Source: a virus (Duplodnaviria > Caudoviricetes). Taken from it: 64,000 nt of DNA. Location of the stretch: the IMG/VR virus record IMGVR_UViG_3300027776_000009; one strand, 5' to 3'. This document shows, piece by piece, positions 22,328 to 60,837 of the stretch. Positions within the stretch are counted from its first letter, which is position 1, and every line of letters starts with the position of its first letter. The notes beneath the pieces are model-generated. The model worked only from the letters and a program-made list of their open reading frames with translations, did no database searches and was not told where the DNA came from. A program made the position numbers and the translations under genes.

Positions 22328-25300
22328 TCAGAAGTTGTCGTCGAAGTAGTGGGCTACCGTTTTCACGGTAACCGGATTGGCTGCCTCACTATCGTGAAAA
22401 ATCAACCATCCAGCACCGCTGGCGACTTTGACAACCCCCGTCCCGGTGAGAGGATTACCCGCGGGTGTATAGTCCAGGATAGCCTGGAGTGGGGATCCGC
22501 TGCCAATCAATACCTTGGTGTCACCGATGATTCCCGAAGAGGTCAATCCCGAGAACTTCGGGCTGTAATACCCTGTGTTTGACGGATCGTCACCAACGAT
22601 CAGGACACGACGAGCTTCCGTATAGCTTAGCATCATGTCGTACCACCCGTTTTCGTTGGCTCCAGAGGTTCCTCGTGCTAAGATTGAAAAGGCTGAGGTA
22701 CTACTAGAGACCGTTCCAACCAGTGTTCCGTTGTAATACGCCGACAACGTAGTGCCAACTCGCGCGATGCGGCACTCGGCGTCAATGGATGGAGTCGTGA
22801 TAACGCTACCCACGAGAGTGGCGTTATTGTAGACTTCCAAATTACCGGTGGTGGCGTTGTACTGAAAACGCAATGTTCCGGTGCTGTAGTCATACGTGGT
22901 GGCGCCAGTTGCTACCCCCAGAGCTTTTTCCTGACCATTACCCTCGAAACTGATCCATTTGAAGCGTAGATCGAAATCTGAGTTAGCCGGGATCAGTTGG
23001 TCCGCTACGAGGTGTCCGCTACTATTACTCGTCTGAGCACGGTGGATCAGTAGTCCCTTATTTTGGAGACAGCGGAACATAACCCCGTTAGCAGCCGTGT
23101 CTTTACCGTCCGCATCCGGCGAAGCGGGTGAGAACGTAACAGGTTCATCAACACGGGTACCTAAGGGAGTGGTCGGAACAGTGTCTATCTGAGTAAGTGG
23201 GGCAGTGGCGTCTGTGGTGTATGCGAAGTTGCAGCTATACGTCGTCCCATTGTCTTTCATGAGCCCCAGTCCAAGCGTTCCGATCCAGTACTCATTAGCC
23301 ACAAACGACGTTCCACTCACTCCATTGCTAAATGAGATTCGCAAGCCATTCATATCTGGTGCGGTTTCGAGACTCGCGTGGACATCTCTCGCACCCGCGT
23401 GATCACGCACCCAGGCACCGCCATCCCAGCCGTACTTCTTCCAGAACGCACTTTCATACGTACTGTATTTCGCATGGGTTGGCGGTAGCATGAAGGGGGT
23501 TACCCCGTAGGCGTCGGCCTGATCACCCTCGTAGGAGAAGAACATATTGCTCCCAGGGAGATAGATCAGCGGGCGACACAAAAGCCCCGTGGTATCTCCC
23601 GAGTACGCGCTGAGTTCCGTTGTTGCCGACGTGATCCCGGTGCGTACTGCAAACTCACAGTTCGCATTCCCGTTCGACAGATAGGTACCATTGGTGAACG
23701 ACGCAATCCCGCTTGTCTTGGTGAACACGCTCGGAAAGTTACCACTATATCCTGCAACATGAGATGACAGGAAGCCTTTGTTTCCACCAATAGTCGCAGG
23801 GACTGCACGACATTGTGCGGAGGCGGTTTCAGGACCATAGAGGTAACTGGCCTGCATATTGTTGGCACCGTATTGGAACCTCAACATGGTCCGGTCATTA
23901 CCCAGTGGGTTTGACACCCCCGCCACCCACCATCCGTCGACACAGCGAATGGAGTCAGAGATCCGCAATAGGTTAGCCAGAGTCCAGGTAAACGAGGTGT
24001 AGTTCACGCCATTGGTCGTCGGATTAACCGCAGTACCTAACCCCGTCGACCACCAGACGTACCCCAATCGGAAGCCACCGCTAGTGACCCCTCCGGCCAA
24101 TACCGACGAGACAAAGAGAAATTGATCGTCTCCGACATTATCCGGATCGATAATCATCGCTGATACGTTTGACCAATTGCTGTCCGTAATACCTGCGTAG
24201 GTAAATGTAGGCGATCCGGTGGTTGGGTTATGGACGCTCCAGGAGAGCGCGCCAACGGCTGCATCGGGGTTGGATAGTTTACACAAGCCACCATCGTAGA
24301 GAACCCAAAGAGTGCCTGCAGTGTCATTCTTGGCACAGATTTGATACACCTTATTCGTCACACCCGCCGGAGCTGGGATCTGCTCGACCGTATCCAGTGC
24401 GGGGTTAATACGCCACAGTCCGGTATCAGCGCAACCAATGTAGGTATAGCCCTTGGTGCAGTCGCCATCGGATACTGCGGTAACAGGCAACGCTGGCGAG
24501 GTGTTCGCATTGAAGAGAAGCTTTGACCCCCGCAGTACATCGTAAATTGCAATCCCGTTCTTTGTACGATTGCATTCAAATGCGGCTACATAACGAGTTG
24601 CGTCAGGACTACGATACGTTACACCGCCCCACTTGGTATTGACCTCGTAGGCTTGGTCTTGCGCGATTCCGCGGAAGGTGTTTCCACCCGCGCGAGTCTG
24701 AGGTAGGAAAGCGGTTCTGGGGATCCAGAGATTACCCGCAAAACCCGCAATGAAGTCAAAAACCTCGACTTTGTATTTAGCCGGAGTCGAGAGGTCTCCG
24801 GTGTCGGTGACTCGAACACGAAACAGTTTCTGATAATGAGGATCAGTCCAGTTGTCCACGTTCAGCGTCAAAGAACCTGACATCGTTGCAAGATTACTGG
24901 TGTCTTGCAGAGGTCCTGCGGGTGTATTTCGCTGAGCGTAGGTATTCTGTCGAGGATCGAGTACATCGGGAAGGACTGGTTGATACACGTAGCCCTTGCT
25001 CATGGTTGTCGGCGTCGAAGCCGCCGACTCATAGCCGGCGTCTCCCATCCAGAGATGCTTCATGAACAGCCCCATGGTGTTAACATGAGCGGCAGGAAAG
25101 GCTAATGAATGCTGGAATGCATTTCCAACACCGATAATGTCAGTGCTACCCCAAGGTCTCCAGAGCGACACGCTAGAATCCGTGAGTACATTTGAAGCTT
25201 CCGTGCCTCCCGATATACGCCCACCATGTAGTGTCATCGGAGAAATATCGTCCAATTGATAGGCTGACGATGTCAGTGATCCCCGCAATCCTCGGTAGTT

Positions 25301-25927
25301 GAAGTATACGCTATTGACAGCATTGCAGACCTTGGTGAACAAACCGCGCAAATCTTCATACACACGGGGAGACGTACGCTGGTTAGACGAGTCTACAACG
25401 GGATGTAGAAAGAGGCGATACGTCACACTGAGCTGCACGTCCGTGTTCTGAGTACACGGTGTACTCAAGCGCAGTATGGTTAACTTGGAATTGCTCTCGG
25501 AATTAACCGTGTGCGACGAGTAGTCGTCCTTGGTCGTATAGAGTCCCAATACGCGAATAGTCCGCGCTGAACCAACGGGTGCTGGAATCAGGAAATTGAA
25601 GGTCACTACATCCGGATCATTGACCGTAGCGCCGGGTGTGTAGGTGGGGAAATCTTGGTTAACGTTGACGTTACCATCACTGCCGCACCATGCGTTCAGT
25701 CGCGTCGGCTTAATGTCAGCGGACCTGTAAAAGAGCTTCCACCGCGCAGAGGACGAATGATTCTGACTGGTAGCGTCCCGTTTAGTCGGGATACTGAAAT
25801 CACCGATCAGTGTAAACATCCGTTTGAACGCAGGTAAGCAGATATCATTACACACCGGCGGCCCAACCGGTTCTTTTCGCCCATCGGGGTAGATATATTC
25901 CAAGAACGCCGATCCAACAATTTTCAT
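22328..25927 (-). CDS. Large virion/adhesin-like protein (~1199 aa)
   Basis: Beta-rich, with propeller-like repeats (YIGCADTGLWRIN, LWVLYDGGLCKL) and a lectin-like RIARVGTTLSAYYNG near the C-terminus. Start MKIV with SD GGAGG. Confidence 0.7.
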   Translation of the reverse strand: MKIVGSAFLEYIYPDGRKEPVGPPVCNDICLPAFKRMFTLIGDFSIPTKRDATSQNHSSSARWKLFYRSADIKPTRLNAWCGSDGNVNVNQDFPTYTPGATVNDPDVVTFNFLIPAPVGSARTIRVLGLYTTKDDYSSHTVNSESNSKLTILRLSTPCTQNTDVQLSVTYRLFLHPVVDSSNQRTSPRVYEDLRGLFTKVCNAVNSVYFNYRGLRGSLTSSAYQLDDISPMTLHGGRISGGTEASNVLTDSSVSLWRPWGSTDIIGVGNAFQHSLAFPAAHVNTMGLFMKHLWMGDAGYESAASTPTTMSKGYVYQPVLPDVLDPRQNTYAQRNTPAGPLQDTSNLATMSGSLTLNVDNWTDPHYQKLFRVRVTDTGDLSTPAKYKVEVFDFIAGFAGNLWIPRTAFLPQTRAGGNTFRGIAQDQAYEVNTKWGGVTYRSPDATRYVAAFECNRTKNGIAIYDVLRGSKLLFNANTSPALPVTAVSDGDCTKGYTYIGCADTGLWRINPALDTVEQIPAPAGVTNKVYQICAKNDTAGTLWVLYDGGLCKLSNPDAAVGALSWSVHNPTTGSPTFTYAGITDSNWSNVSAMIIDPDNVGDDQFLFVSSVLAGGVTSGGFRLGYVWWSTGLGTAVNPTTNGVNYTSFTWTLANLLRISDSIRCVDGWWVAGVSNPLGNDRTMLRFQYGANNMQASYLYGPETASAQCRAVPATIGGNKGFLSSHVAGYSGNFPSVFTKTSGIASFTNGTYLSNGNANCEFAVRTGITSATTELSAYSGDTTGLLCRPLIYLPGSNMFFSYEGDQADAYGVTPFMLPPTHAKYSTYESAFWKKYGWDGGAWVRDHAGARDVHASLETAPDMNGLRISFSNGVSGTSFVANEYWIGTLGLGLMKDNGTTYSCNFAYTTDATAPLTQIDTVPTTPLGTRVDEPVTFSPASPDADGKDTAANGVMFRCLQNKGLLIHRAQTSNSSGHLVADQLIPANSDFDLRFKWISFEGNGQEKALGVATGATTYDYSTGTLRFQYNATTGNLEVYNNATLVGSVITTPSIDAECRIARVGTTLSAYYNGTLVGTVSSSTSAFSILARGTSGANENGWYDMMLSYTEARRVLIVGDDPSNTGYYSPKFSGLTSSGIIGDTKVLIGSGSPLQAILDYTPAGNPLTGTGVVKVASGAGWLIFHDSEAANPVTVKTVAHYFDDNF

Positions 25928-25928
25928 C

Positions 25929-26933
25929 TCAACCTCCAAGGTTTCCACCCGCCACTCGTGTGACGGTGTATGCATTATTCACCACACCGGACTCGAACTG
26001 ACCTACTGTTTCGTCCGTTCCAGAGACCGTCTCTAACCGATAAACCACTCGGATGAGAGCGTAATCGTTAATGATGGTACCTGTTTCAAATTGCAGTGGC
26101 GTATCTGTGTATTCCAAGGTATCCTGACGATACACCACGCGGGTCAACGAGTAGTCGTTGACCAAGCTACCCGTTTCAAACTGCGACAAGACATTGTTAG
26201 CGGCGGCTAATCCGTCATAATCCGCCCAGCTATCGTAGGCGGTTTCATTGTCTCGTCCTGGGCGTCTGTATATCGCTCCAAACCTTAGCCGTGCAGGGAG
26301 ATCTGTTACAACCTCTTTGGGTTCTGATGCTAAAAACGTTTGCACGAGAACCCAACTACTGCCGCCCCATCGCTCAACAATCACTCCGACGTATCTGGCC
26401 TCGTAATTCTGACCGATCTCGTCCGGAGTTTGGTGTGCGAAGGCGGGCTCGGGAATCTGCAGCGTCGACCCTGCACCACTTAGACTAAATCCGGCGTTGT
26501 GTGGTATGGTGTCGTCAAACACCCCGGCATAGGTAACGTAGTGTTTCCACACCAGTGCGGATGACGGATAGAGTACGTCATTAATCACGGTTCCGGTGCT
26601 ATAAGTCTCTGCGTCACTTGCCGGAGTGGTGTAGATGACAACGTCCCTGTAGCTTTCCATGGGGGTGTTGCGATCTACATAAAAGCGAAACACCTTATCG
26701 GTCCCGGGTATTCCACCCGGGAGATAATAGGCGGCAGTGGCTGACGTTGGAAATAAGGAAACGATAGGAGTACCTGATATCTGAACCCACTCGGTTGTGT
26801 GCTGATTCAATTCCCCAATAACAGAAGCTTCTAGATATACCACGGGGGTGCACACCGCAGACTGGTTCTCCCCCGCGGACTGAATAACTACCACCTGTCG
26901 CGTCAGGTGACCTACCATTAAAATCTGCGGCAT
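25929..26933 (-). CDS. Virion accessory protein (334 aa) with C-terminal triplicated repeat
   Basis: Ig/PKD-like SAGENQ...EWVQISG start and three QFE(T/S)G..(I/V)N.Y...RV repeats. Confidence 0.65.
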   Translation of the reverse strand: MPQILMVGHLTRQVVVIQSAGENQSAVCTPVVYLEASVIGELNQHTTEWVQISGTPIVSLFPTSATAAYYLPGGIPGTDKVFRFYVDRNTPMESYRDVVIYTTPASDAETYSTGTVINDVLYPSSALVWKHYVTYAGVFDDTIPHNAGFSLSGAGSTLQIPEPAFAHQTPDEIGQNYEARYVGVIVERWGGSSWVLVQTFLASEPKEVVTDLPARLRFGAIYRRPGRDNETAYDSWADYDGLAAANNVLSQFETGSLVNDYSLTRVVYRQDTLEYTDTPLQFETGTIINDYALIRVVYRLETVSGTDETVGQFESGVVNNAYTVTRVAGGNLGG

Positions 26934-35330: not shown

Positions 35331-37259
35331 TTATGCCGTGTAGTCGCAGTGGTTGGTGATGACGTAGCCCTCGTAGAGAGCATTCGGGACCACGTAGAAG
35401 ACACCGCCATCCGAGGTAACTACCTTGTTATAACGTGCACTCGGTTGGAGCTGCGGGAAGATCGCGTCCAGCGCCTTAAACAGCCACGGAATGGATGACG
35501 GGGTAATGACTCCGATTTCGCTGGCGCAGGCCAAGGCAAGATCCGTTGTCGTTACGGGGAGCAGGATGACGTTATCCAGCGTCACGATGCAGTAAGTGTC
35601 CTTATCCCATTCAAACTCCACAAGCTCCTGCAAGACCTCGAACCGCAAGCAGTTAGCCACGGCTGTAGCAACCGTACGACATCCTTTCTGAAACAGGTCC
35701 TGCACGATTTCTTGCTCTTTATCAATTTCTGTCTCCAAAGAGCTCAGATCATCGATAAAGGACCCGATGGAAATATCCACATTCAACACCACGTTCACGT
35801 AGAAGTTCACGTAATTCGTGATGGCAGTATGGAGGAGTTCCCAGTAGTGCAATGGCAGGATCGGGGAGCGCAAACAGATCAGAATGGCTTTCATCTCGTT
35901 CCAGTTCTTACTGTTCGTCAGAGACTGCATGAGCGCCGATGTCTTGGTATCAGACACTGTCCAGAGCGACTGATTCGCCACGGTGTATGCAATCACAGCG
36001 TCTTCAACCCCAGAGTAGATCCCCGGAATATCGGACAGACGCGACTGCGCGGGAGCCCAGTAATCATCTTCATTGATCCCGGCGATGTACCCGTTCAGCA
36101 CCAGGTTACATTGGAGACCTTCCTTGATGGCGGCGTTGGTATCAGTGGACTGATCCTCGATGCGTTTGAGCAACGATTCCACTCGCTCCATTTGCTGCAA
36201 CCGTTCCGCGACAGCGTAGGCTGACTCTGTATCCGGCGTCGCGTCACGAACATCCGCGGTTCGGGAAACCAGTAACAGGTCAGTAGCATGGTCTTTGTAT
36301 TCCATCTTCTTGTCCTTAGCCTCGTCGGTAGTCACAATGGTGTTAAGATAGCCGTCGTCTTTCTTGACCCAGAAAGCCACTTGTTCACCCAGAATGTACA
36401 CCAATGGGTAAACATTCGGCGGGAGGTAGCCGTCTTGGAATGAGAGGGAGGTTTGTTGCACCAAGTTCTTCAACCGAGTATCTGGTGCGTTGGCGGGAGT
36501 TTTGGCATTGTTAGATTTGGGAGTTTCCTTCTCCACCCGCCCTGCTCGACCATGGGTGTAGGTTTCACCATTGTCATCATTACGTTCCTTACTCTGGGTC
36601 GAGTTGGGACCGTATCCTTCACGCCGACGACCACTTTCCTTATCACGACCAGCATCCCAACCGCGTCCACCACGAGCAGGCTCACGATTCCGATCCCGTC
36701 GATCATCCCGCCCTCGGTCGCCGCGATCATAGCGACTGGTGCGTGAATCACCGCGGCCGCGAGCGCGATCGCCGCCGCGTTCGCGATTGTAAAAGTTCTG
36801 AATATCTTCCGTGAGCCGATCATACGTCCGCATGGCGTCGTCCACTTTCCGAAGCTGTCCGTCTGTCAGATAGCGTTCCAGCTTCCGATCTGCATCCGCT
36901 TCCAAAGCCGCATACAGCATACCCACGATGTCGGCCGCTTTATCGCACAATTCCTCATCCGGGAGAGTGGAGCGCCGGGATTCGATATCCGCCAATTCAA
37001 CCACCATACGACACATGGTGTCAAAGTGACTGTTGTTGAATCCATTTTTGGCGGCCGTATAAAACAAGCTCTGACGCAGTACGGAGTCATTGGCCTGTTC
37101 CTGGATGACATGTTGCAGGGAACCCGCTGCAATGCGAACCAGCGGAGTCATCCCAGAATCCGGGAGGCGAAGACTGGGTACGTAAATCGGGTTATCTCGA
37201 ACATCACGATAAAGATCGCCCGGCTGAACATCGTCGAACGGTGTATCAAAGTTTGCCAT
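35331..37259 (-). CDS. Hypothetical protein (642 aa) with an R/G/D-rich disordered segment
   Basis: Long ORF with SD AGGAG, downstream of the nvRNAP subunit gene and with its own promoter-like motif. Confidence 0.8.
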   Translation of the reverse strand: MANFDTPFDDVQPGDLYRDVRDNPIYVPSLRLPDSGMTPLVRIAAGSLQHVIQEQANDSVLRQSLFYTAAKNGFNNSHFDTMCRMVVELADIESRRSTLPDEELCDKAADIVGMLYAALEADADRKLERYLTDGQLRKVDDAMRTYDRLTEDIQNFYNRERGGDRARGRGDSRTSRYDRGDRGRDDRRDRNREPARGGRGWDAGRDKESGRRREGYGPNSTQSKERNDDNGETYTHGRAGRVEKETPKSNNAKTPANAPDTRLKNLVQQTSLSFQDGYLPPNVYPLVYILGEQVAFWVKKDDGYLNTIVTTDEAKDKKMEYKDHATDLLLVSRTADVRDATPDTESAYAVAERLQQMERVESLLKRIEDQSTDTNAAIKEGLQCNLVLNGYIAGINEDDYWAPAQSRLSDIPGIYSGVEDAVIAYTVANQSLWTVSDTKTSALMQSLTNSKNWNEMKAILICLRSPILPLHYWELLHTAITNYVNFYVNVVLNVDISIGSFIDDLSSLETEIDKEQEIVQDLFQKGCRTVATAVANCLRFEVLQELVEFEWDKDTYCIVTLDNVILLPVTTTDLALACASEIGVITPSSIPWLFKALDAIFPQLQPSARYNKVVTSDGGVFYVVPNALYEGYVITNHCDYTA

Positions 37260-45728: not shown

Positions 45729-46076
45729 TTAGTCATCCACATCATCGTAATCTGGTTTAATAGATGCGCGACAATGTTCACACAGGTAGTACACTGGGCC
45801 ACAAAGCCCTTCGCCGGGATCGCGCCATGGTTTGCACGCGGCTTCTCGCTTGCAGTGGTCACAATAGTACAGGTTACTGCACTCAGTGATCCCTTTACAA
45901 TACTCCTGATAATGCTCCTCGCAGAAGTCCTCGTATTCAGCACCGAAAGAATCTGTCTCACCTTGGACACGATACAGAGCAGGTTGGTGACATCCATCGG
46001 TATCGCAGGCGTGTCCACTAGAAAGAGATCGAACATGTCCGGGAAGTGTTGAGATAGGACCTGATACGCTCGCCAT
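45729..46076 (-). CDS. Cys/His-rich putative double zinc-finger protein (115 aa)
   Basis: CDxxGC...CEEH, CDHC...CEHC. SD GAGGAG. Confidence 0.7.
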   Translation of the reverse strand: MASVSGPISTLPGHVRSLSSGHACDTDGCHQPALYRVQGETDSFGAEYEDFCEEHYQEYCKGITECSNLYYCDHCKREAACKPWRDPGEGLCGPVYYLCEHCRASIKPDYDDVDD

Positions 46077-46092
46077 GATTATCTCCTCTTGT

Positions 46093-46120
46093 AAAAAGAA
46101 AGGGATCCCGAAGGACCCCC
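46093..46120 (-). terminator. Intrinsic terminator with UUCG loop
   Basis: GGGGTCC-TTCG-GGATCCC-TTTCTTTTT. Confidence 0.75.
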
Positions 46121-46125
46121 GTAGG

Positions 46126-47073
46126 TTAACCGCGCAGATAGCCACCCGCATACCCACGTTCCGGAGAACCGTAGATATCAATCAGCTCGCCCTTCTTGGA
46201 CTTCATCCACAGCTCAACCAGCCTGGGATTGATCGTACCAATAAGCCCGATCTTGGTTCTGGGAGAACGCGGCGTGGGGAGCATCAGATACTCGACCGGA
46301 ATCCCCAGCTCCAGTTGGGCATGGTTGAGCTCCTGGATTTCACCGGCACGGCAATCCCGGTAGTAGTATCCACCGAGTTCGCAGATCGGACTATTGAGGA
46401 TTTGCTGGATCGCTTTATCGATCCGTGCGCCCAGCTCCTCGACAGACATGTTGCGGAACTTTGCAACCACCTTGCGGCGATGGAGGCGCAGTTCATCCAC
46501 GTTGATGTCAGGACACAACCCCGCGAAAGCCGCTGCTGGGCAGTGATCACTGGCAGCAATCAGGAGACGATTACTGGGGAAGATCTCCTCAAGCTGCGGG
46601 ACCGTAAAACCCAGACTCAGCAGGAAGATCCAGAGCTGACCCAGGGAGCTACCATGCCAGTAATCGTGGGGTTGCTTGTTGAACCCCGGATCACCCGGAC
46701 GATGATGGTCAATGATAACCGCGTGACTACGGTCAACATCAATCAGTCCGCTCTCGATGTATACGGGAGTGATCCCGTCACGATCTTCCATCGGGACTTC
46801 CTCACTATACCCCAATACCCCGTCGATCTCCGAGGGATAGTAGACTTGGTACGGATGAGAAACATCCTTCAGGAGCGTAGCGTTGTACGCGTTATGGCTG
46901 GCAACCGGCTGAGCTTCACCGCCATTATCGATACAGGCTTGCGTGATAATCCACCCGCCATGGATATGTGGCGAGCAGGCATCCAGAACGCCGCGGATCG
47001 CCAGCATTTCTGGGTCCTCTGCTCCCAGAATAAAAACGTAGTCCTCGATCAGATTGTGGGTATAGTGTTCCAT
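46126..47073 (-). CDS. DHH-family phosphoesterase (NrN-like)
   Basis: LGAEDPEM, IIDHH, SSLGQ, LIAASD motifs. SD AGGAGG. Confidence 0.65.
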   Translation of the reverse strand: MEHYTHNLIEDYVFILGAEDPEMLAIRGVLDACSPHIHGGWIITQACIDNGGEAQPVASHNAYNATLLKDVSHPYQVYYPSEIDGVLGYSEEVPMEDRDGITPVYIESGLIDVDRSHAVIIDHHRPGDPGFNKQPHDYWHGSSLGQLWIFLLSLGFTVPQLEEIFPSNRLLIAASDHCPAAAFAGLCPDINVDELRLHRRKVVAKFRNMSVEELGARIDKAIQQILNSPICELGGYYYRDCRAGEIQELNHAQLELGIPVEYLMLPTPRSPRTKIGLIGTINPRLVELWMKSKKGELIDIYGSPERGYAGGYLRG

Positions 47074-47084
47074 GATTTGTCCTC

Positions 47085-47366
47085 CTACGGACAGTTGGGG
47101 ATAGTCCCATTGGTGTTATGTACGTGAAATAGTTTCGTTTGTAGTCTTACTCCGAGCTCCTGTGGGATGCGGTAAGGACAGTTATCGATACTTCCTTCAT
47201 AGGTTTTTCGCAGACCGTGCCAGACACTCATCATGAGTTCAGCCTCTACCCAGTATGAATACGTCGCGGCCATACCGGCGCTAGTATCATAAACCCGTGC
47301 GGTGTGATTACGTTTCAGTAAATCAACCAGAGCTGCAAAATGACTATCGGTCATTTTTTCACACAT
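47085..47366 (-). CDS. Hypothetical protein (93 aa)
   Basis: SD AGGAGG. Confidence 0.6.
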   Translation of the reverse strand: MCEKMTDSHFAALVDLLKRNHTARVYDTSAGMAATYSYWVEAELMMSVWHGLRKTYEGSIDNCPYRIPQELGVRLQTKLFHVHNTNGTIPNCP

Positions 47367-47386: not shown

Positions 47387-47422
47387 CGGCATAGAGGAGG
47401 GAATCCCCTCCTCACTATGTCG
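47387..47422. terminator. Hairpin flanked by CGGCATA/TATGTCG
   Basis: GAGGAGGG/CCCTCCTC stem at 47394-47413. Confidence 0.65.
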
Positions 47423-55855: not shown

Positions 55856-56746
55856 TCAGTATCCGTCAAACTGTTCAGACGCGACTTCGCGAGCCACGTG
55901 GTAGACCAGATAGGTTAACAGCTCAGCTTCCACCATCTGAGGACTATCCGCCAATTCCTGCTTCAGTCCTTTGTTATGCCATTCGAAGCTCTTCATAAAC
56001 CGGATCTGGTTTCTGCAGAAGCTAAGAAAGTCCGTATGTCCGAGCCGAGTGTTCAGCTCTGCAAAGAGCCCTTCGTAGACTTCCTCGAAATAGTCACGAG
56101 AGAGAAACGCCAGGCGATCAATGTCACGGAGAATACTGCCCAGCGTCGTTGGTTCACGATTGTACGGATACTCGGACTCCATAACCAACCACCGGCACTG
56201 CCCCATGGTTTCATCAAGCTGACGAGCCGTTTCCATATGAAGGTCATCAAGGAAATCATCAAGCGTCACACCTGCAGCGTAAAAAACAGGGTAGTGTCTC
56301 CAGTCCCCATTGATAGGTACTGTGAACAACGTGAGAACTCGGGCGATGTTGGCACTGTCGTCGTATTGCCCTTGGCTATGGTAGACGTCGTGCAGTAATA
56401 GCGTTAGCGCAACTACTTGGACCGACCGGGGGGTAAGGTCGGGACAGCCGCGCTTGACCGCAGAACTGAAAAAGCGATCCAAGGCGGTCAGGACGTGTGC
56501 CCGATTGTGGTAGGTTTTACGGATATACTGAGTAGGGTCTTGTGTTTCGTAAATCCCAATACTCGGGTCAGAGTACTCCCCCAGCCAGTAACTGAAAAGC
56601 GCTTGCCCTGTCTTCGGGAACAGACGTATGAAGTTGTTCATGACGTTATTCTGTTCGGCGTACATGTCGTCAAATGAACAGGGTTTCAAAAGGCCACGGC
56701 TAACGAGGCGGCGTTTCACTTCTGCCACCGTTTCAATATTGTTCAT
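55856..56746 (-). CDS. HD-domain phosphohydrolase with PDEase-like YHNxxH motif
   Basis: YHNRAH, LLHDVYH, ILRDID, NQIRFM. SD GGAGAG. Confidence 0.75.
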   Translation of the reverse strand: MNNIETVAEVKRRLVSRGLLKPCSFDDMYAEQNNVMNNFIRLFPKTGQALFSYWLGEYSDPSIGIYETQDPTQYIRKTYHNRAHVLTALDRFFSSAVKRGCPDLTPRSVQVVALTLLLHDVYHSQGQYDDSANIARVLTLFTVPINGDWRHYPVFYAAGVTLDDFLDDLHMETARQLDETMGQCRWLVMESEYPYNREPTTLGSILRDIDRLAFLSRDYFEEVYEGLFAELNTRLGHTDFLSFCRNQIRFMKSFEWHNKGLKQELADSPQMVEAELLTYLVYHVAREVASEQFDGY

Positions 56747-56764
56747 GATTCTCTCCAGATGTTC

Positions 56765-56796
56765 AAAAAAGAAAAGGGTGAGGAAAGTCCTCACCC
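56765..56796 (-). terminator. Intrinsic terminator
   Basis: GGGTGAGGA/TCCTCACCC stem plus TTTTCTTTTTT. Confidence 0.8.
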
Positions 56797-56808
56797 AAGC
56801 ACAGCAAC

Positions 56809-57597
56809 TTACTGATCGATACTGGTCCGGAAGTGGTCGCATCCCCACTCGCTGTGAACGCAGTACTTCACCGCCGTCAGTTCGACAAACTGCTCCGTAT
56901 CAACCCACGACGGATTACCGGGTTGGTAAACCATCACATCTTCTATTTTGGTGCCATCAGTCATGACACCGCGGGTGTATACCAAGACGGTATGGGCATC
57001 GTCAGGGAATGGGACCTGAGACGGCACGGGACCGCTATCGTCACGATTCCCCTTCTTGATCAGCTTACGCACATCTTTGCCAACCTTACGGGCAGCTTTG
57101 GTAAAGGCTTCGATGTCCATCTCATCAAGCATGCGCTCAGCGCGCACATCGAAGGGTTCTTCACCGGACAAGTCTTCAACAGTCGAGATAACACCCAGAA
57201 CCGGAGGCTTCTCAGTCAACCACTCAGCATTGCCATAATTGACACGTCGGTCCCCGATAACGTCCAGAGCCATAGCACGGGCGCGCTGATCCAGGGAATC
57301 GATTTCTTCCTGAGTGGCCAGACGAAGCATGTAGTTTGGCAGCTGACGAGTTTCGTGTTCACGTCCATGGGGGGAGTAAAAGCCCACAGTAACGGAAGGC
57401 GTTGTATTATCGACGCGGTCGAGACTGGAACCGGGTCCTGTAGTCTGGCGATTGTTATCAAACACAACCAGCAACACGTCAGTATTGCGGTTATCTTTGA
57501 ACAGATCGTGATATACGACCAAATCACCGGTGTTGAAAGAAACGGGAGCGTTCTTCAAAACGGTAGCGAGGGCAATCAGGCGAGTAGACATCTTCAT
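56809..57597 (-). CDS. Hypothetical protein, paralog of the N-terminal half of 59295-60761
   Basis: Shared M..S.RL..LA..L, G..VVY..LF, VG.Y.P.G...E and RLAT..EI motifs. Confidence 0.75.
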   Translation of the reverse strand: MKMSTRLIALATVLKNAPVSFNTGDLVVYHDLFKDNRNTDVLLVVFDNNRQTTGPGSSLDRVDNTTPSVTVGFYSPHGREHETRQLPNYMLRLATQEEIDSLDQRARAMALDVIGDRRVNYGNAEWLTEKPPVLGVISTVEDLSGEEPFDVRAERMLDEMDIEAFTKAARKVGKDVRKLIKKGNRDDSGPVPSQVPFPDDAHTVLVYTRGVMTDGTKIEDVMVYQPGNPSWVDTEQFVELTAVKYCVHSEWGCDHFRTSIDQ

Positions 57598-57777: not shown

Positions 57778-59187
57778 CTATTTAGGCATAGCGTTCCACG
57801 CCTCAACGTTTGCTAGCTGTTTGGCCACATTGTAATCCGTCGCAATGCTGAGATAGTAAGACATATTGTCAATAAAACTGTCAATATACTTCTGAAATCT
57901 CAGCAAGATGGGAGTTTGCTTGCTCGTGTATTGTTGAGCCAAATTTTGCACCAAATCCTGCCTCTGTCGTTCATTAGCGGATATGGCTGCAGCGCTGGCT
58001 TTTTCCAGCCTTTCAAAGAGCTCTTTGATCTCCTTCTGATAGGTGTCAAAGTTCTTTTGATTCATCTGAACAAAATCTTTCAGGGCTTCTACTAATCCAA
58101 GGGTCTCATCAAGTTCGGGGAATTTAAGTTCCTTTTCACTTAATAAAAGACCTCTGTCAAGTAACTTTCGACCATGGACCGTATCGCCGAGCCGCAACGA
58201 CGGTAGTTCAAACCGTATCTGATCCCCGTTAGTCCCGTCATATTTCGGTTGTAGTTCTGCTAAATAAAGACACTGCTCCCCTGGGTAAACGTTGCCATAG
58301 GTCTTAATGCTTTTATCGCTTAGTGATTCGGCGGCAGCCGAATCATGGCCAGCCGGAACATTAAAACCTATGTCGTTAAAATAATCTACTTGATCAAGTA
58401 GAAGATTTTTCCGCGTGGCGTCACTTAATCCGGTACGCTCCAATACAGCAACCATGTTTCTGACCAGACCGTAATAGAGAGCAGCCTGTCCAGACCCACT
58501 AAGAAGTTGCGTCATGATGGTTGTGAAATCGGACCGCGTTGTTGGAAAATGGTTTCCGACCATCAGGTTCATTAGCCGCTCATAATCGACTTTCAAGTTA
58601 TCGAGTATCTTTAGATGAAGATCGTTCGGGATAACCTTAATGTGTCTGGTTACTGTGGCGACGGAACCGGTTTTTGCGTCGTGAATATGGCTCACGATCT
58701 TATTCTCAAGGGTCTCTAGTTTCTTCTTCCTCAACCCAAGAAGTTGCAGGATCTTACCACCCCATTCCTTGAGCTTTGCCCAGACACGTTTGAGCATTTC
58801 CAACAGAGCCTTACCCATGTCTTTCAGACGCTGCCCAATCCCGTCTTCCATAGAAGCAATAAGTGCGCTGGGGTCACTGCTCTCCATAGACGGCGTTGCG
58901 TACCCAAATCCCCAGCGTTTGTCGACCATCTGAATAGTTTTCTGGGCAAAGACCAAGGCATTACGATCCAGCATAGCACCTTTCAAGGCCTGTTCCAGGG
59001 CTGCTTGCACATCTTCCAGAGCATCTGTGTCGGCACGTAAGGTATCGACACGGTTTATATCTTCTTGCAGTTCATGATGGAGCTGGTTAGCCTCCAGTTC
59101 AGATCCCTGCATTTCCACCACAGGGAGAGTGACTTCCGGTTCAACGAGTTCTTCCAAACCCAAACGATAATAGAGTTTGCTAGACAT
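57778..59187 (-). CDS. Inner-head protein paralog
   Basis: MSSKLYYRLGLEEL leader, PSMES and ASMED sites, EMLKRVWAKLKEW helix. Confidence 0.8.
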   Translation of the reverse strand: MSSKLYYRLGLEELVEPEVTLPVVEMQGSELEANQLHHELQEDINRVDTLRADTDALEDVQAALEQALKGAMLDRNALVFAQKTIQMVDKRWGFGYATPSMESSDPSALIASMEDGIGQRLKDMGKALLEMLKRVWAKLKEWGGKILQLLGLRKKKLETLENKIVSHIHDAKTGSVATVTRHIKVIPNDLHLKILDNLKVDYERLMNLMVGNHFPTTRSDFTTIMTQLLSGSGQAALYYGLVRNMVAVLERTGLSDATRKNLLLDQVDYFNDIGFNVPAGHDSAAAESLSDKSIKTYGNVYPGEQCLYLAELQPKYDGTNGDQIRFELPSLRLGDTVHGRKLLDRGLLLSEKELKFPELDETLGLVEALKDFVQMNQKNFDTYQKEIKELFERLEKASAAAISANERQRQDLVQNLAQQYTSKQTPILLRFQKYIDSFIDNMSYYLSIATDYNVAKQLANVEAWNAMPK

Positions 59188-59249
59188 GACAATATACCTA
59201 CAGAGGGGGTGGGTGGACAAGATTTGTAACACAGACTCATAGCATAACC

Positions 59250-59294: not shown

Positions 59295-60761
59295 TTACTT
59301 GCTGTAGATGTTTACGCTGATCACTCGGCTGTCCTTGACGTTAATGATAACAACATCATTGACATCACTGCTGATAAGCACGTCGCACTGTTTCGAAGTG
59401 ACATCCTCAGCCAGCAGCTTTGCTACCACCTGATCTGTCTGGATCACAACGACATAAGTTTCGTCGGCGTAAGAACGATCGTTGACAACCACCAGACGAC
59501 CGCCGAGCCGGTGGATCTCGTGCTCAACCGGGAAGTGAATCAATGGAGTTCTCAGCAACTCTACGGCGTATTCCGTTGCGATGGCCAGCTCTTCCTTGAC
59601 TGTGGTTGCGTGTGCAAACCGATCATTAAAACCCTCCCAATCATACGTGCCGACTGGATACACGTCGACGCCATCATCGATACCCAAGGGCTTAACCGCT
59701 TCGGAGAGTGGTTCCTTTTCACCCGGCTGAATGGACGGTGAACGGATATAAAGCGTTCCCACAATGCGGTCATCATGCAGGTACTTGATAACCAAGGCTT
59801 TGTTGACCTCGGTCGGGAGGGTCCACCATTGGTCAAGCATGAGACGCTGTACTTCGATCCGACCATTGCCAAGCCAAAGCGCCTGAGCCCATTTTGCAGC
59901 AACTCCGTGTTTCATAACAGTTTCATCGACATGTTCCGGCATTTCCGAATGAATCAGGATCATGCGGTCCATCGAAACCTGTGTCACATCCGTGATATCA
60001 AAGAGACCTGACGCAACGGCGTGTGCATACAGAACAAACTCATCGTAATGCATCGGACGATTGCTGATCGAGCAACGTTGATCACCGTGGGCGCTCGACA
60101 CTTTTGCGCCAACCGTGACCGGTGAAGCATCGTATGCTTCCAGCCCGCGCTGATTACGACGCTGCCGCTGCTCTTCATAATAGCCTTCTGCCCCGGTTGA
60201 CAGTCTGATTTCACTACGGTTTTCACCGAGTTGAGCACCGAACTCCACCCCACCACCGGCCCAGGTTGACTCAGCAATGACCGGACGCACTTTCCAGGAA
60301 TCAATCGGATCACCTTCCTTTTGCGTCATCCAGGCAATGTTCCCGGCTGGATGAGGAGTACGGTTTACATTCAGGTATTCCAGGGCCTGCTCATAGGCCA
60401 ATGCATCACCCCGTTTGATTTCGTCTTCCGTTGCCAAGCGGATGTGGCGCGGATCCACATCCATCAGTTCGTAGTCATTACCCAAGGGGTGATACATGCC
60501 GACAGAAATACGGTAGTCAAGGGACGCTTGATACGCATTACGCAGATCGTACCGACCATCACGAGTCCCATACAAGCCATGCATCTGAGGTTCACGACCC
60601 AACTGAGGACGCTGTGGCATGATCACCATCAGACACGACCAGGTGTTTTCACCCGCTTCAACGAACAGGGATTTATAAACCACGATCTGACCGGGCTCAA
60701 AGGGCTTATCCGGGTGGACGAGGGAAGCAGCGAGTTGTTGCAGACGTTGTGAGAGTTTCAT
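59295..60761 (-). CDS. Hypothetical protein (~488 aa)
   Basis: Start MKLS (SD GGAG) aligns with the paralog. An alternative in-frame ATG at 60809 also has an SD. Confidence 0.75.
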   Translation of the reverse strand: MKLSQRLQQLAASLVHPDKPFEPGQIVVYKSLFVEAGENTWSCLMVIMPQRPQLGREPQMHGLYGTRDGRYDLRNAYQASLDYRISVGMYHPLGNDYELMDVDPRHIRLATEDEIKRGDALAYEQALEYLNVNRTPHPAGNIAWMTQKEGDPIDSWKVRPVIAESTWAGGGVEFGAQLGENRSEIRLSTGAEGYYEEQRQRRNQRGLEAYDASPVTVGAKVSSAHGDQRCSISNRPMHYDEFVLYAHAVASGLFDITDVTQVSMDRMILIHSEMPEHVDETVMKHGVAAKWAQALWLGNGRIEVQRLMLDQWWTLPTEVNKALVIKYLHDDRIVGTLYIRSPSIQPGEKEPLSEAVKPLGIDDGVDVYPVGTYDWEGFNDRFAHATTVKEELAIATEYAVELLRTPLIHFPVEHEIHRLGGRLVVVNDRSYADETYVVVIQTDQVVAKLLAEDVTSKQCDVLISSDVNDVVIINVKDSRVISVNIYSK

Positions 60762-60837
60762 GGTGTTTCTCCAGTTAATTACGGATTGATCAGCGGTCTT
60801 TGTAGCCATAATGGCTCTCCTATGGGTTATCCCTTAG

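Follow-up and report, generated by a model that had tools for sequence, protein, structure and literature searches.

A minus-strand gene of a phiKZ-like jumbo phage (46126..47073) encodes a 315-aa protein of the DHH/DHHA1 phosphoesterase superfamily, and the closest known relative of this protein is NrN, a CorA-associated enzyme of type III-B/D CRISPR systems that has been studied in Bacteroides fragilis. Judged by its sequence, the protein belongs to a sister family of NrN that has no name, is carried mainly by phages and plasmids, and lies outside the NrN clade. The gene is located in a stretch of 64,000 bp from a virus of the Caudoviricetes (IMG/VR record IMGVR_UViG_3300027776_000009), which is referred to as the window. 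The new element is a large family that has no match in Pfam, PHROG or NCBIfam, has kept its catalytic machinery intact, and is carried by jumbo phages, other phages and megaplasmids.

NrN hydrolyses SAM-AMP, yielding SAM plus AMP, and leaves pApA and cOA uncut (PMC10600005), and in the B. fragilis system the degradation of SAM-AMP is needed for immunity (PMC10600005, PMC12255297). The phage SAM-AMP lyase AcrIIIB4 is a proposed anti-CRISPR protein (PMC12255297), and DHH enzymes of jumbo phages have been proposed to counter nucleotide signals (PMC7824862). In the literature searched, we found neither an account of an NrN-type enzyme in phiKZ-like phages nor a name for the sister family. To our knowledge, the only role ascribed to NrN so far is that of an accessory enzyme of CRISPR systems, acting on a single substrate.

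The gene and the phage

The reading frame starts with ATG (ORF listing) and is preceded, 7 nt 5' of the start codon, by the Shine-Dalgarno sequence AGGAGG (47081..47086, minus strand; read directly from the sequence), which overlaps the TAG stop codon of an upstream 93-aa ORF (47085..47366, minus strand). The 93-aa ORF has no Pfam family, and no relative of it adjoins the enzyme gene at other loci. A hairpin resembling an intrinsic terminator (8 bp, 5 GC, followed by a T-run; 46101..46120, minus strand) starts 6 nt past the stop codon of the enzyme gene. Between the 104-aa and 93-aa genes lies a GC hairpin, GAGGAGGG-GATT-CCCTCCTC, followed by TATGCCG (47387..47413, minus strand; also read directly), which may be the upstream boundary of a unit consisting of the 93-aa ORF and the enzyme gene. 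On the minus strand, thymidylate kinase is followed by the 104-aa ORF, the hairpin with TATGCCG, the 93-aa ORF, the enzyme gene and the terminator, in this order, which places the enzyme gene two small genes downstream of thymidylate kinase and amid structural genes. Since the GC hairpin with TATGCCG and the terminator frame the pair, a two-gene transcription unit is suggested, and the 93-aa ORF and the enzyme gene are probably co-transcribed. An ORF on the plus strand that is slightly longer than the enzyme ORF (46075-47127) was rejected as an antisense shadow.

The assignment of the phage to the phiKZ-like group is based on the kinship of its DnaB helicase and on its phiKZ-type structural genes. 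The divergent DnaB helicase (PF20307) encoded in the window has its best relatives, with 37-42% identity, in jumbo phages (Erwinia phage RAY, Ea35-70 and Xanthomonas phage Xoo-sp14), which we take to be phiKZ-like. Also encoded in the window are a major head protein of the phiKZ type, internal head proteins (phiKZ_IP) and head-tail joining proteins. Membership of this clade suggests that the phage is nucleus-forming; no chimallin was found in the window. An ORF of 642 aa (35331-37259, minus strand) that was considered as a chimallin candidate gave no match when 50,697 phage genomes were searched by tblastn, and its PHROG matches were weak and of unknown function only. The same picture, with PHROG matches that were absent or weak and of unknown function, was obtained for three further large ORFs on the minus strand (22328-25975, 1215 aa; 57778-59232, 484 aa; 59295-60809, 504 aa). 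A second gene of the phosphohydrolase type (55856-56848, minus strand; phrog_16069, E 1.9e-11) adjoins the internal head protein genes.

Superfamily assignment and conserved residues

All motifs quoted in the initial annotation are present in the protein, namely FILGAEDPEMLAI (residues 14-26), YIE (105-107), IIDHH (120-124), SSLGQL (142-147), LIAASD (171-176) and the C-terminus YGSPERGYAGGYLRG, which is rich in Gly and aromatic residues. In terms of the superfamily, motif I is D20-P-E22, motif II is E107, motif III is D122-H123-H124 and motif IV is D176, and the C-terminal motif reads YGxPxRGYAGGY. These motifs are not due to chance, because the protein has hundreds of homologues and the motif residues correspond to invariant columns of the family alignment. 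A search at E <= 1e-3 yielded 496 homologues (90%-identity clusters), and an exhaustive profile search covering 1.84 billion representatives put the size of the NrN sister family at 1,665 clusters at 50% identity (1,053 at E <= 1e-30). The family alignment of 46 members (A1) has the invariant residues G17, D20, E22, M23, E107, D122, H123, H124, D128, G130, S142, G145, Q146, A174, D176, H177 and C187, and an invariant C-terminal block Y-G-x-P-x-R-G-Y-A-G. Cys108 is found in 90% of the family but is replaced by Ser in the window protein. This protein and its closest relatives also contain an insertion of about 30 residues (residues ~70-100; window 46866-46774), which sits between the Tyr63 loop and motif II and is modelled with lower confidence (pLDDT 67-74).

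When searched as a single sequence, the window protein had no match in Pfam, PHROGs, NCBIfam, PADLOC or the PDB sequences, and in Pfam there was no match even at E <= 10, PF01368 (DHH) and PF02272 (DHHA1) included. Among the matches listed for the family, the only name was 'hypothetical protein', and none of them had a precomputed Pfam domain. A precomputed Pfam domain was likewise found in 0 of the 120 listed relatives of a CorA-linked NrN (locus L097); the lack of a Pfam match therefore does not discriminate, as genuine NrN proteins share it. The canonical acidic pattern of the DHH superfamily is DxD / D / DHH / D. The pattern common to the window family and NrN is DxE / E / DHH / D, and its non-canonical DxE/E part is a possible reason for the failure of the Pfam DHH model to recognise either family.

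The two-domain DHH/DHHA1 fold was obtained with an AF2 model based on A1 (mean pLDDT 91.7, pTM 0.88). All significant matches of this model in Foldseek and VIA-align were DHH/DHHA1 proteins, and they covered residues 6-315.

Relationship to NrN

The relationship to NrN is visible only by profiles and structure, and it was recovered with four approaches: sequence profile, profile-profile comparison, Foldseek and VIA-align. A search of all PDB sequences with the A1 profile returned NrN (9lq9) as the top match (E 1.6e-3). The A1 profile aligns to the NrN segments LGGHDLEM, IDHH, SALEQV and LVAAND, in agreement with the NrN pattern given in the initial annotation. In the Foldseek search against the PDB, the NrN entries 9lqb, 9lq9 and 9lqa ranked first (E ~2e-5, TM 0.63 by target), followed by DhhP, NanoRNase A, family II pyrophosphatase, GdpP and RecJ. 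VIA-align gave Z scores of 14.4 for 9lqb, 14.1 for 9lqc, 13.9 for 9lqa and 12.5 for 9lq9; the best match covered the whole chain (227/252 residues, rmsd 3.5 A, 17% identity). Beyond NrN, the next DHH protein had a Z score of 10.8, and nanoRNases scored 7-8.7. The initial annotation had named housekeeping proteins of the RecJ/NrnA type, with no affinity to NrN, as the best hits that would speak against its proposal; the structures that rank first are those of NrN.

CorA-linked NrN genes for comparison were obtained with the PADLOC model DHH_CorA from 401 Bacteroidota genomes. The NrN of L097 had 546 relatives, of which 41 were aligned (A2). Comparison of A1 with these 41 CorA-type NrN sequences by hhalign gave a probability of 98.3% (E 2e-14) over 139 columns, which span the DHH domain and the next helix. 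In the joint alignment (A4), F14, G17, D20, E22, M23, I26, Y63, E107, D122, H123, H124, Q146, A174, D176, R199, G302, G307 and G310 are invariant in both groups. The residues E22, D122/H123/H124 and D176 of the window protein correspond to E21, D85/H86/H87 and D119 in the B. fragilis numbering, whose mutation has been used to abolish the activity of NrN or to trap ligands (PMC10600005; PDB entries 9lqa-c). Family members were also matched by both CorA-associated PADLOC models (C3a116 at 6.6e-8 and DHH_CorA at 2.5e-3); C3a116 corresponds to the group that Shah et al. described as 'cluster 29 (CorA) associated' (PMC6546367). We conclude that NrN is the closest known relative of the window protein.

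Both groups consist of compact two-domain DHH/DHHA1 proteins of about 250-315 aa with the motif set G-x-D-x-E-M / E / DHH / S-x-x-Q / AA-x-D. They also have in common Tyr63, Arg199 and a C-terminal loop of the type Y-G-x-x-x-x-G-[FY]-x-G-G, and both are missed by the Pfam DHH and DHHA1 models. Unlike NrN (9lq9, 9lqa, 9lqb, 9lqc), the family has DHC...CPG in place of ND-GYIP, no linkage to CorA or CRISPR has been seen for it, and its C-terminal domain cannot be aligned with that of NrN by profiles. The better-known small-nucleotide phosphodiesterases NrnA, GdpP, PggH, Rv2837c and DhhP share the superfamily fold and the DHH motif III with the window protein, but they differ from it in their canonical DxD motif I, in the presence of a GGGH motif and in their long linker, and PF01368 and PF02272 detect them.

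A family outside the NrN clade

In a maximum-likelihood tree of 46 family members and 41 NrN sequences, the two groups were placed on opposite sides of one branch (SH-aLRT 100) with a length of about 4.8 substitutions per site (3.05 + 1.77); the tree resulted from a quick search, is unrooted, and leaves out the proteobacterial C3a116-type NrN. The window protein falls into a well-supported subclade of 14 sequences, among them two proteins (P0005 and P0023) that are encoded on phiKZ-like contigs with PhiKZ_VTX, phiKZ_gp29PR and DUF7193 genes. The NrN-invariant residues W37, Y113-I114-P115 (GYIP), F171-S172 and D176-R177 (FSPxxDR) are not conserved at the aligned positions of the family. Specific to the family are a PGDPG insert of 10 residues after DHH, His177-Cys178 next to the Asp of motif IV, Cys187, and Pro304/Arg306 in the C-terminal Gly/aromatic loop; Asp128 is also invariant. 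A profile comparison of the C-terminal halves of the two groups recovered only an 11-residue Gly/aromatic motif in common (E 0.33). The C-terminal domain is the part of DHH/DHHA1 enzymes that binds the substrate and determines which substrate is chosen. Because this domain has diverged and the NrN-specific residues have been lost, the specificity of NrN cannot be assumed for the family.

Neither an adjacent or fused corA gene nor a type III CRISPR locus was found in the window or, among the listed neighbour families, at 87 related loci; at the NrN loci L096 and L097, which served as controls, CorA and RT-Cas1 are present. At the Bacteroidota locus L097 (L097:3-3704), NrN (251 aa) is directly followed by CorA and faces a divergent RT-Cas1, and at L096 (L096:1501-3729, also Bacteroidota) NrN and CorA are fused into a protein of at least 743 aa. 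The initial annotation suggested a captured signal-degrading enzyme; capture from a CRISPR locus is not supported for a protein whose separate family of 1,665 clusters is set apart from the CorA-type NrN by a very long branch and for which no linkage to CorA or Cas10 has been seen.

A protein of 531 aa (P0277, L103:185-1780) was considered as a fusion with an NrN module and was rejected, because only its N-terminal family domain aligns to the NrN profile. It carries a C-terminal extension of about 240 residues that has no alignment to NrN, and it is followed by a gene for a protein of 556 aa without Pfam domains.

Distribution and genomic neighbourhoods

The family occurs in other phiKZ-like jumbo phages at differing genome positions, on 36 IMG/VR contigs with neighbouring helicase, SSB, exonuclease, methyltransferase and recombination genes, on 13 megaplasmids (including pQBR57 and P. 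aeruginosa megaplasmids), and in PcfJ-containing elements. It was also found at 47 loci of GTDB genomes (Pseudomonas, Burkholderiales, Rhodocyclales, Patescibacteria and others), which have heterogeneous neighbours. Neighbour clusters in the ESM Atlas were 53-73% viral, and none of 400 other Pseudomonadota genomes, sampled evenly, contained a member of the family. The carriage by phages and plasmids, the result for the 400 genomes and the viral clusters indicate a rare mobile accessory gene rather than a housekeeping gene.

No member of the family was detected by tblastn among the 50,697 cultured or deposited phage genomes of INPHARED when the window protein and a central family member were used as queries, and the viral structures in BFVD gave generic DHH matches only (TM <= 0.44). 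An all-against-all search across the 87 loci revealed no conserved neighbour other than shadows of the gene itself, and Cas10, CorA and Cas families were absent from the listed neighbour families of these loci. Markers of the CorA-type NrN were present in 3 of 401 Bacteroidota genomes but in none of the 400 other Pseudomonadota genomes of the sample, and a search of 400 Pseudomonadota genomes with C3a116 returned only cross-matches to the NrN sister family. With no CorA-NrN markers in 400 Pseudomonadota genomes, the known target system appears to be rare where the family occurs.

On two metagenomic bacterial contigs of 0.6-1.2 Mb (L006 and L008), the family gene lies within about 20 kb of small genes, most of them without Pfam domains. 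The same stretch includes genes for an RNA ligase (PHA02142-like) and for NUDIX or radical-SAM proteins, and it looks like an integrated element or variable island.

Possible function

The window protein has the complete metal-binding and catalytic set, which is invariant in 46 members, on a confidently predicted NrN-like fold. It is predicted to be an active, divalent-metal-dependent two-domain DHH/DHHA1 phosphodiesterase. By analogy with NrN and the nanoRNase/dinucleotidase branch, it would most likely cut the 3'-5' phosphodiester of a small dinucleotide-like molecule. The acidic and His residues of the DHH domain would bind the metals, and the remaining half of the substrate would presumably sit in the C-terminal domain, which includes the Gly/aromatic loop and the invariant Arg306. 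For the phage, the enzyme may serve to remove a nucleotide-based immune signal of the host, either SAM-AMP or a related, perhaps as yet undescribed, linear nucleotide conjugate. Counter-defence by a small-nucleotide phosphodiesterase is the best single reading because the family is restricted to mobile elements and because viral ring nucleases and AcrIIIB4 provide precedents. Substrate, role and signal are inferred, and we advance this reading tentatively, at somewhat less than an even chance. The surroundings speak against it, as the gene adjoins thymidylate kinase and structural genes and not an obvious early anti-defence cluster. Further points against it are the diverged C-terminal domain, the replacement of NrN-invariant residues by new invariant ones, the failure to find CorA, Cas10 or another conserved partner at 87 loci, the apparent rarity of the known target system, and the need for SAM-AMP degradation in the immunity of B. 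fragilis.

Other enzymes of mobile genetic elements for which destruction of a type III CRISPR signal has been proposed, the PII-like lyase and DUF1874, are functional analogues of the window protein, but their folds are unrelated to DHH and their chemistry is different. The substrate of AcrIIIB4 has been demonstrated, whereas that of the window protein is a prediction.

The initial annotation had proposed a narrower role, that of a SAM-AMP-specific phosphodiesterase acting as an anti-CRISPR against CorA-type type III systems. NrN is indeed the nearest relative by both sequence and structure, the catalytic residues are identical, and Tyr63, Gln146, Arg199 and the C-terminal Gly/aromatic loop are common to both. 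Nucleus-forming phages, moreover, are said (in work of Mendoza and of Malone, both from 2020) to remain exposed to RNA-targeting type III CRISPR, and a phage lyase for SAM-AMP has already been proposed as AcrIIIB4 (PMC12255297). Against these points stand the very long branch between the families, the C-terminal domain and NrN-specific residues that have not been kept, and the spread of the family across Pseudomonadota, Patescibacteria and the mobile elements of these groups, whose searched samples contained no CorA-NrN markers. NrN supports immunity and does not block it in the one system that has been tested; as the degradation of SAM-AMP is needed for immunity in B. fragilis, an additional degrading enzyme need not inhibit it. 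We therefore regard strict specificity for SAM-AMP as quite unlikely. An enzyme that degrades pNpN, short oligonucleotides or pAp to mononucleotides for phage replication, i.e., a dinucleotidase or nanoRNase for nucleotide salvage, is the principal competing reading; it is also rather unlikely, but less so. It would be in line with the next-best structural matches (nanoRNases, pAp phosphatases and pApA/pGpG phosphodiesterases, Z 7-8.7), with the thymidylate kinase gene two small genes upstream, with the helicase, exonuclease, SSB and recombination genes nearby in other viral contigs, and with the invariant Arg306 in the substrate loop, which could bind a 5'-phosphate. Dinucleases carried by mobile genetic elements are a documented precedent (PMC13464484): these DEDDy diDNases, like the family described here, are a mobile sister group of a housekeeping or CRISPR-linked family of small-nucleotide nucleases, but they have a DnaQ/DEDD fold and not a DHH fold. 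However, NrN, which does not cut pApA or cOA, is clearly nearer to the window protein than any nanoRNase (Z 14.4 vs <= 8.7), hosts already possess Orn or NrnA-C, the thymidylate kinase neighbour is not conserved, and the position of the gene varies among related jumbo phages in a manner expected for accessory and not for core metabolic genes.

The presence of GdpP, PggH and Rv2837c among the structural matches, and the occurrence of the family on megaplasmids and as a stand-alone gene in chromosomes, would be compatible with a manipulation of host second messengers, in which the removal of pApA/pGpG (or c-di-NMPs) resets c-di-AMP/c-di-GMP signalling in favour of the phage or plasmid. We consider this improbable, as these matches are weaker than those to NrN and no linkage to GGDEF, EAL or DAC was observed in the neighbourhoods examined. 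Least plausible of all, and very improbable indeed, is a protein that has kept nothing but the fold and acts as a sponge (a binder without catalysis) or in a structural role. Nothing specific favours it apart from the Ser that replaces Cys108 in the window protein; against it, the metal-binding and catalytic positions show no variation among 46 diverse members and are common with NrN.

Returning to counter-defence, an eraser of immune signals would protect nucleus-forming phages from signalling immunity, against which their shell is no barrier. A wider claim, that all 1,665 clusters of the family serve mobile elements as general erasers of immune signals of the SAM-AMP type (nucleotide conjugates), appears doubtful to us. 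If true, it would mean that the use of SAM-AMP, or of a related messenger yet to be discovered, extends far beyond CorA-type type III CRISPR loci, and that such signalling also takes place in the Pseudomonadota that host nucleus-forming phages and megaplasmids. If the substrate is something else, the family would point to an unknown small nucleotide of importance to mobile elements.

The homologue on pQBR57 (WP_192963525.1) in Pseudomonas fluorescens SBW25 offers a tractable experimental system. On pQBR57 (L099:5349-7819) and on a megaplasmid of P. aeruginosa DN1 (L100:5346-7825), the gene is contiguous with, or overlaps, the end of a gene for a DUF4942 protein of about 545 aa, a pairing that is confined to Pseudomonas megaplasmids and absent from all other loci examined. 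The DUF4942 copy of P. aeruginosa has a just-sub-threshold match to a methyltransferase domain, which suggests a possible SAM-using partner.
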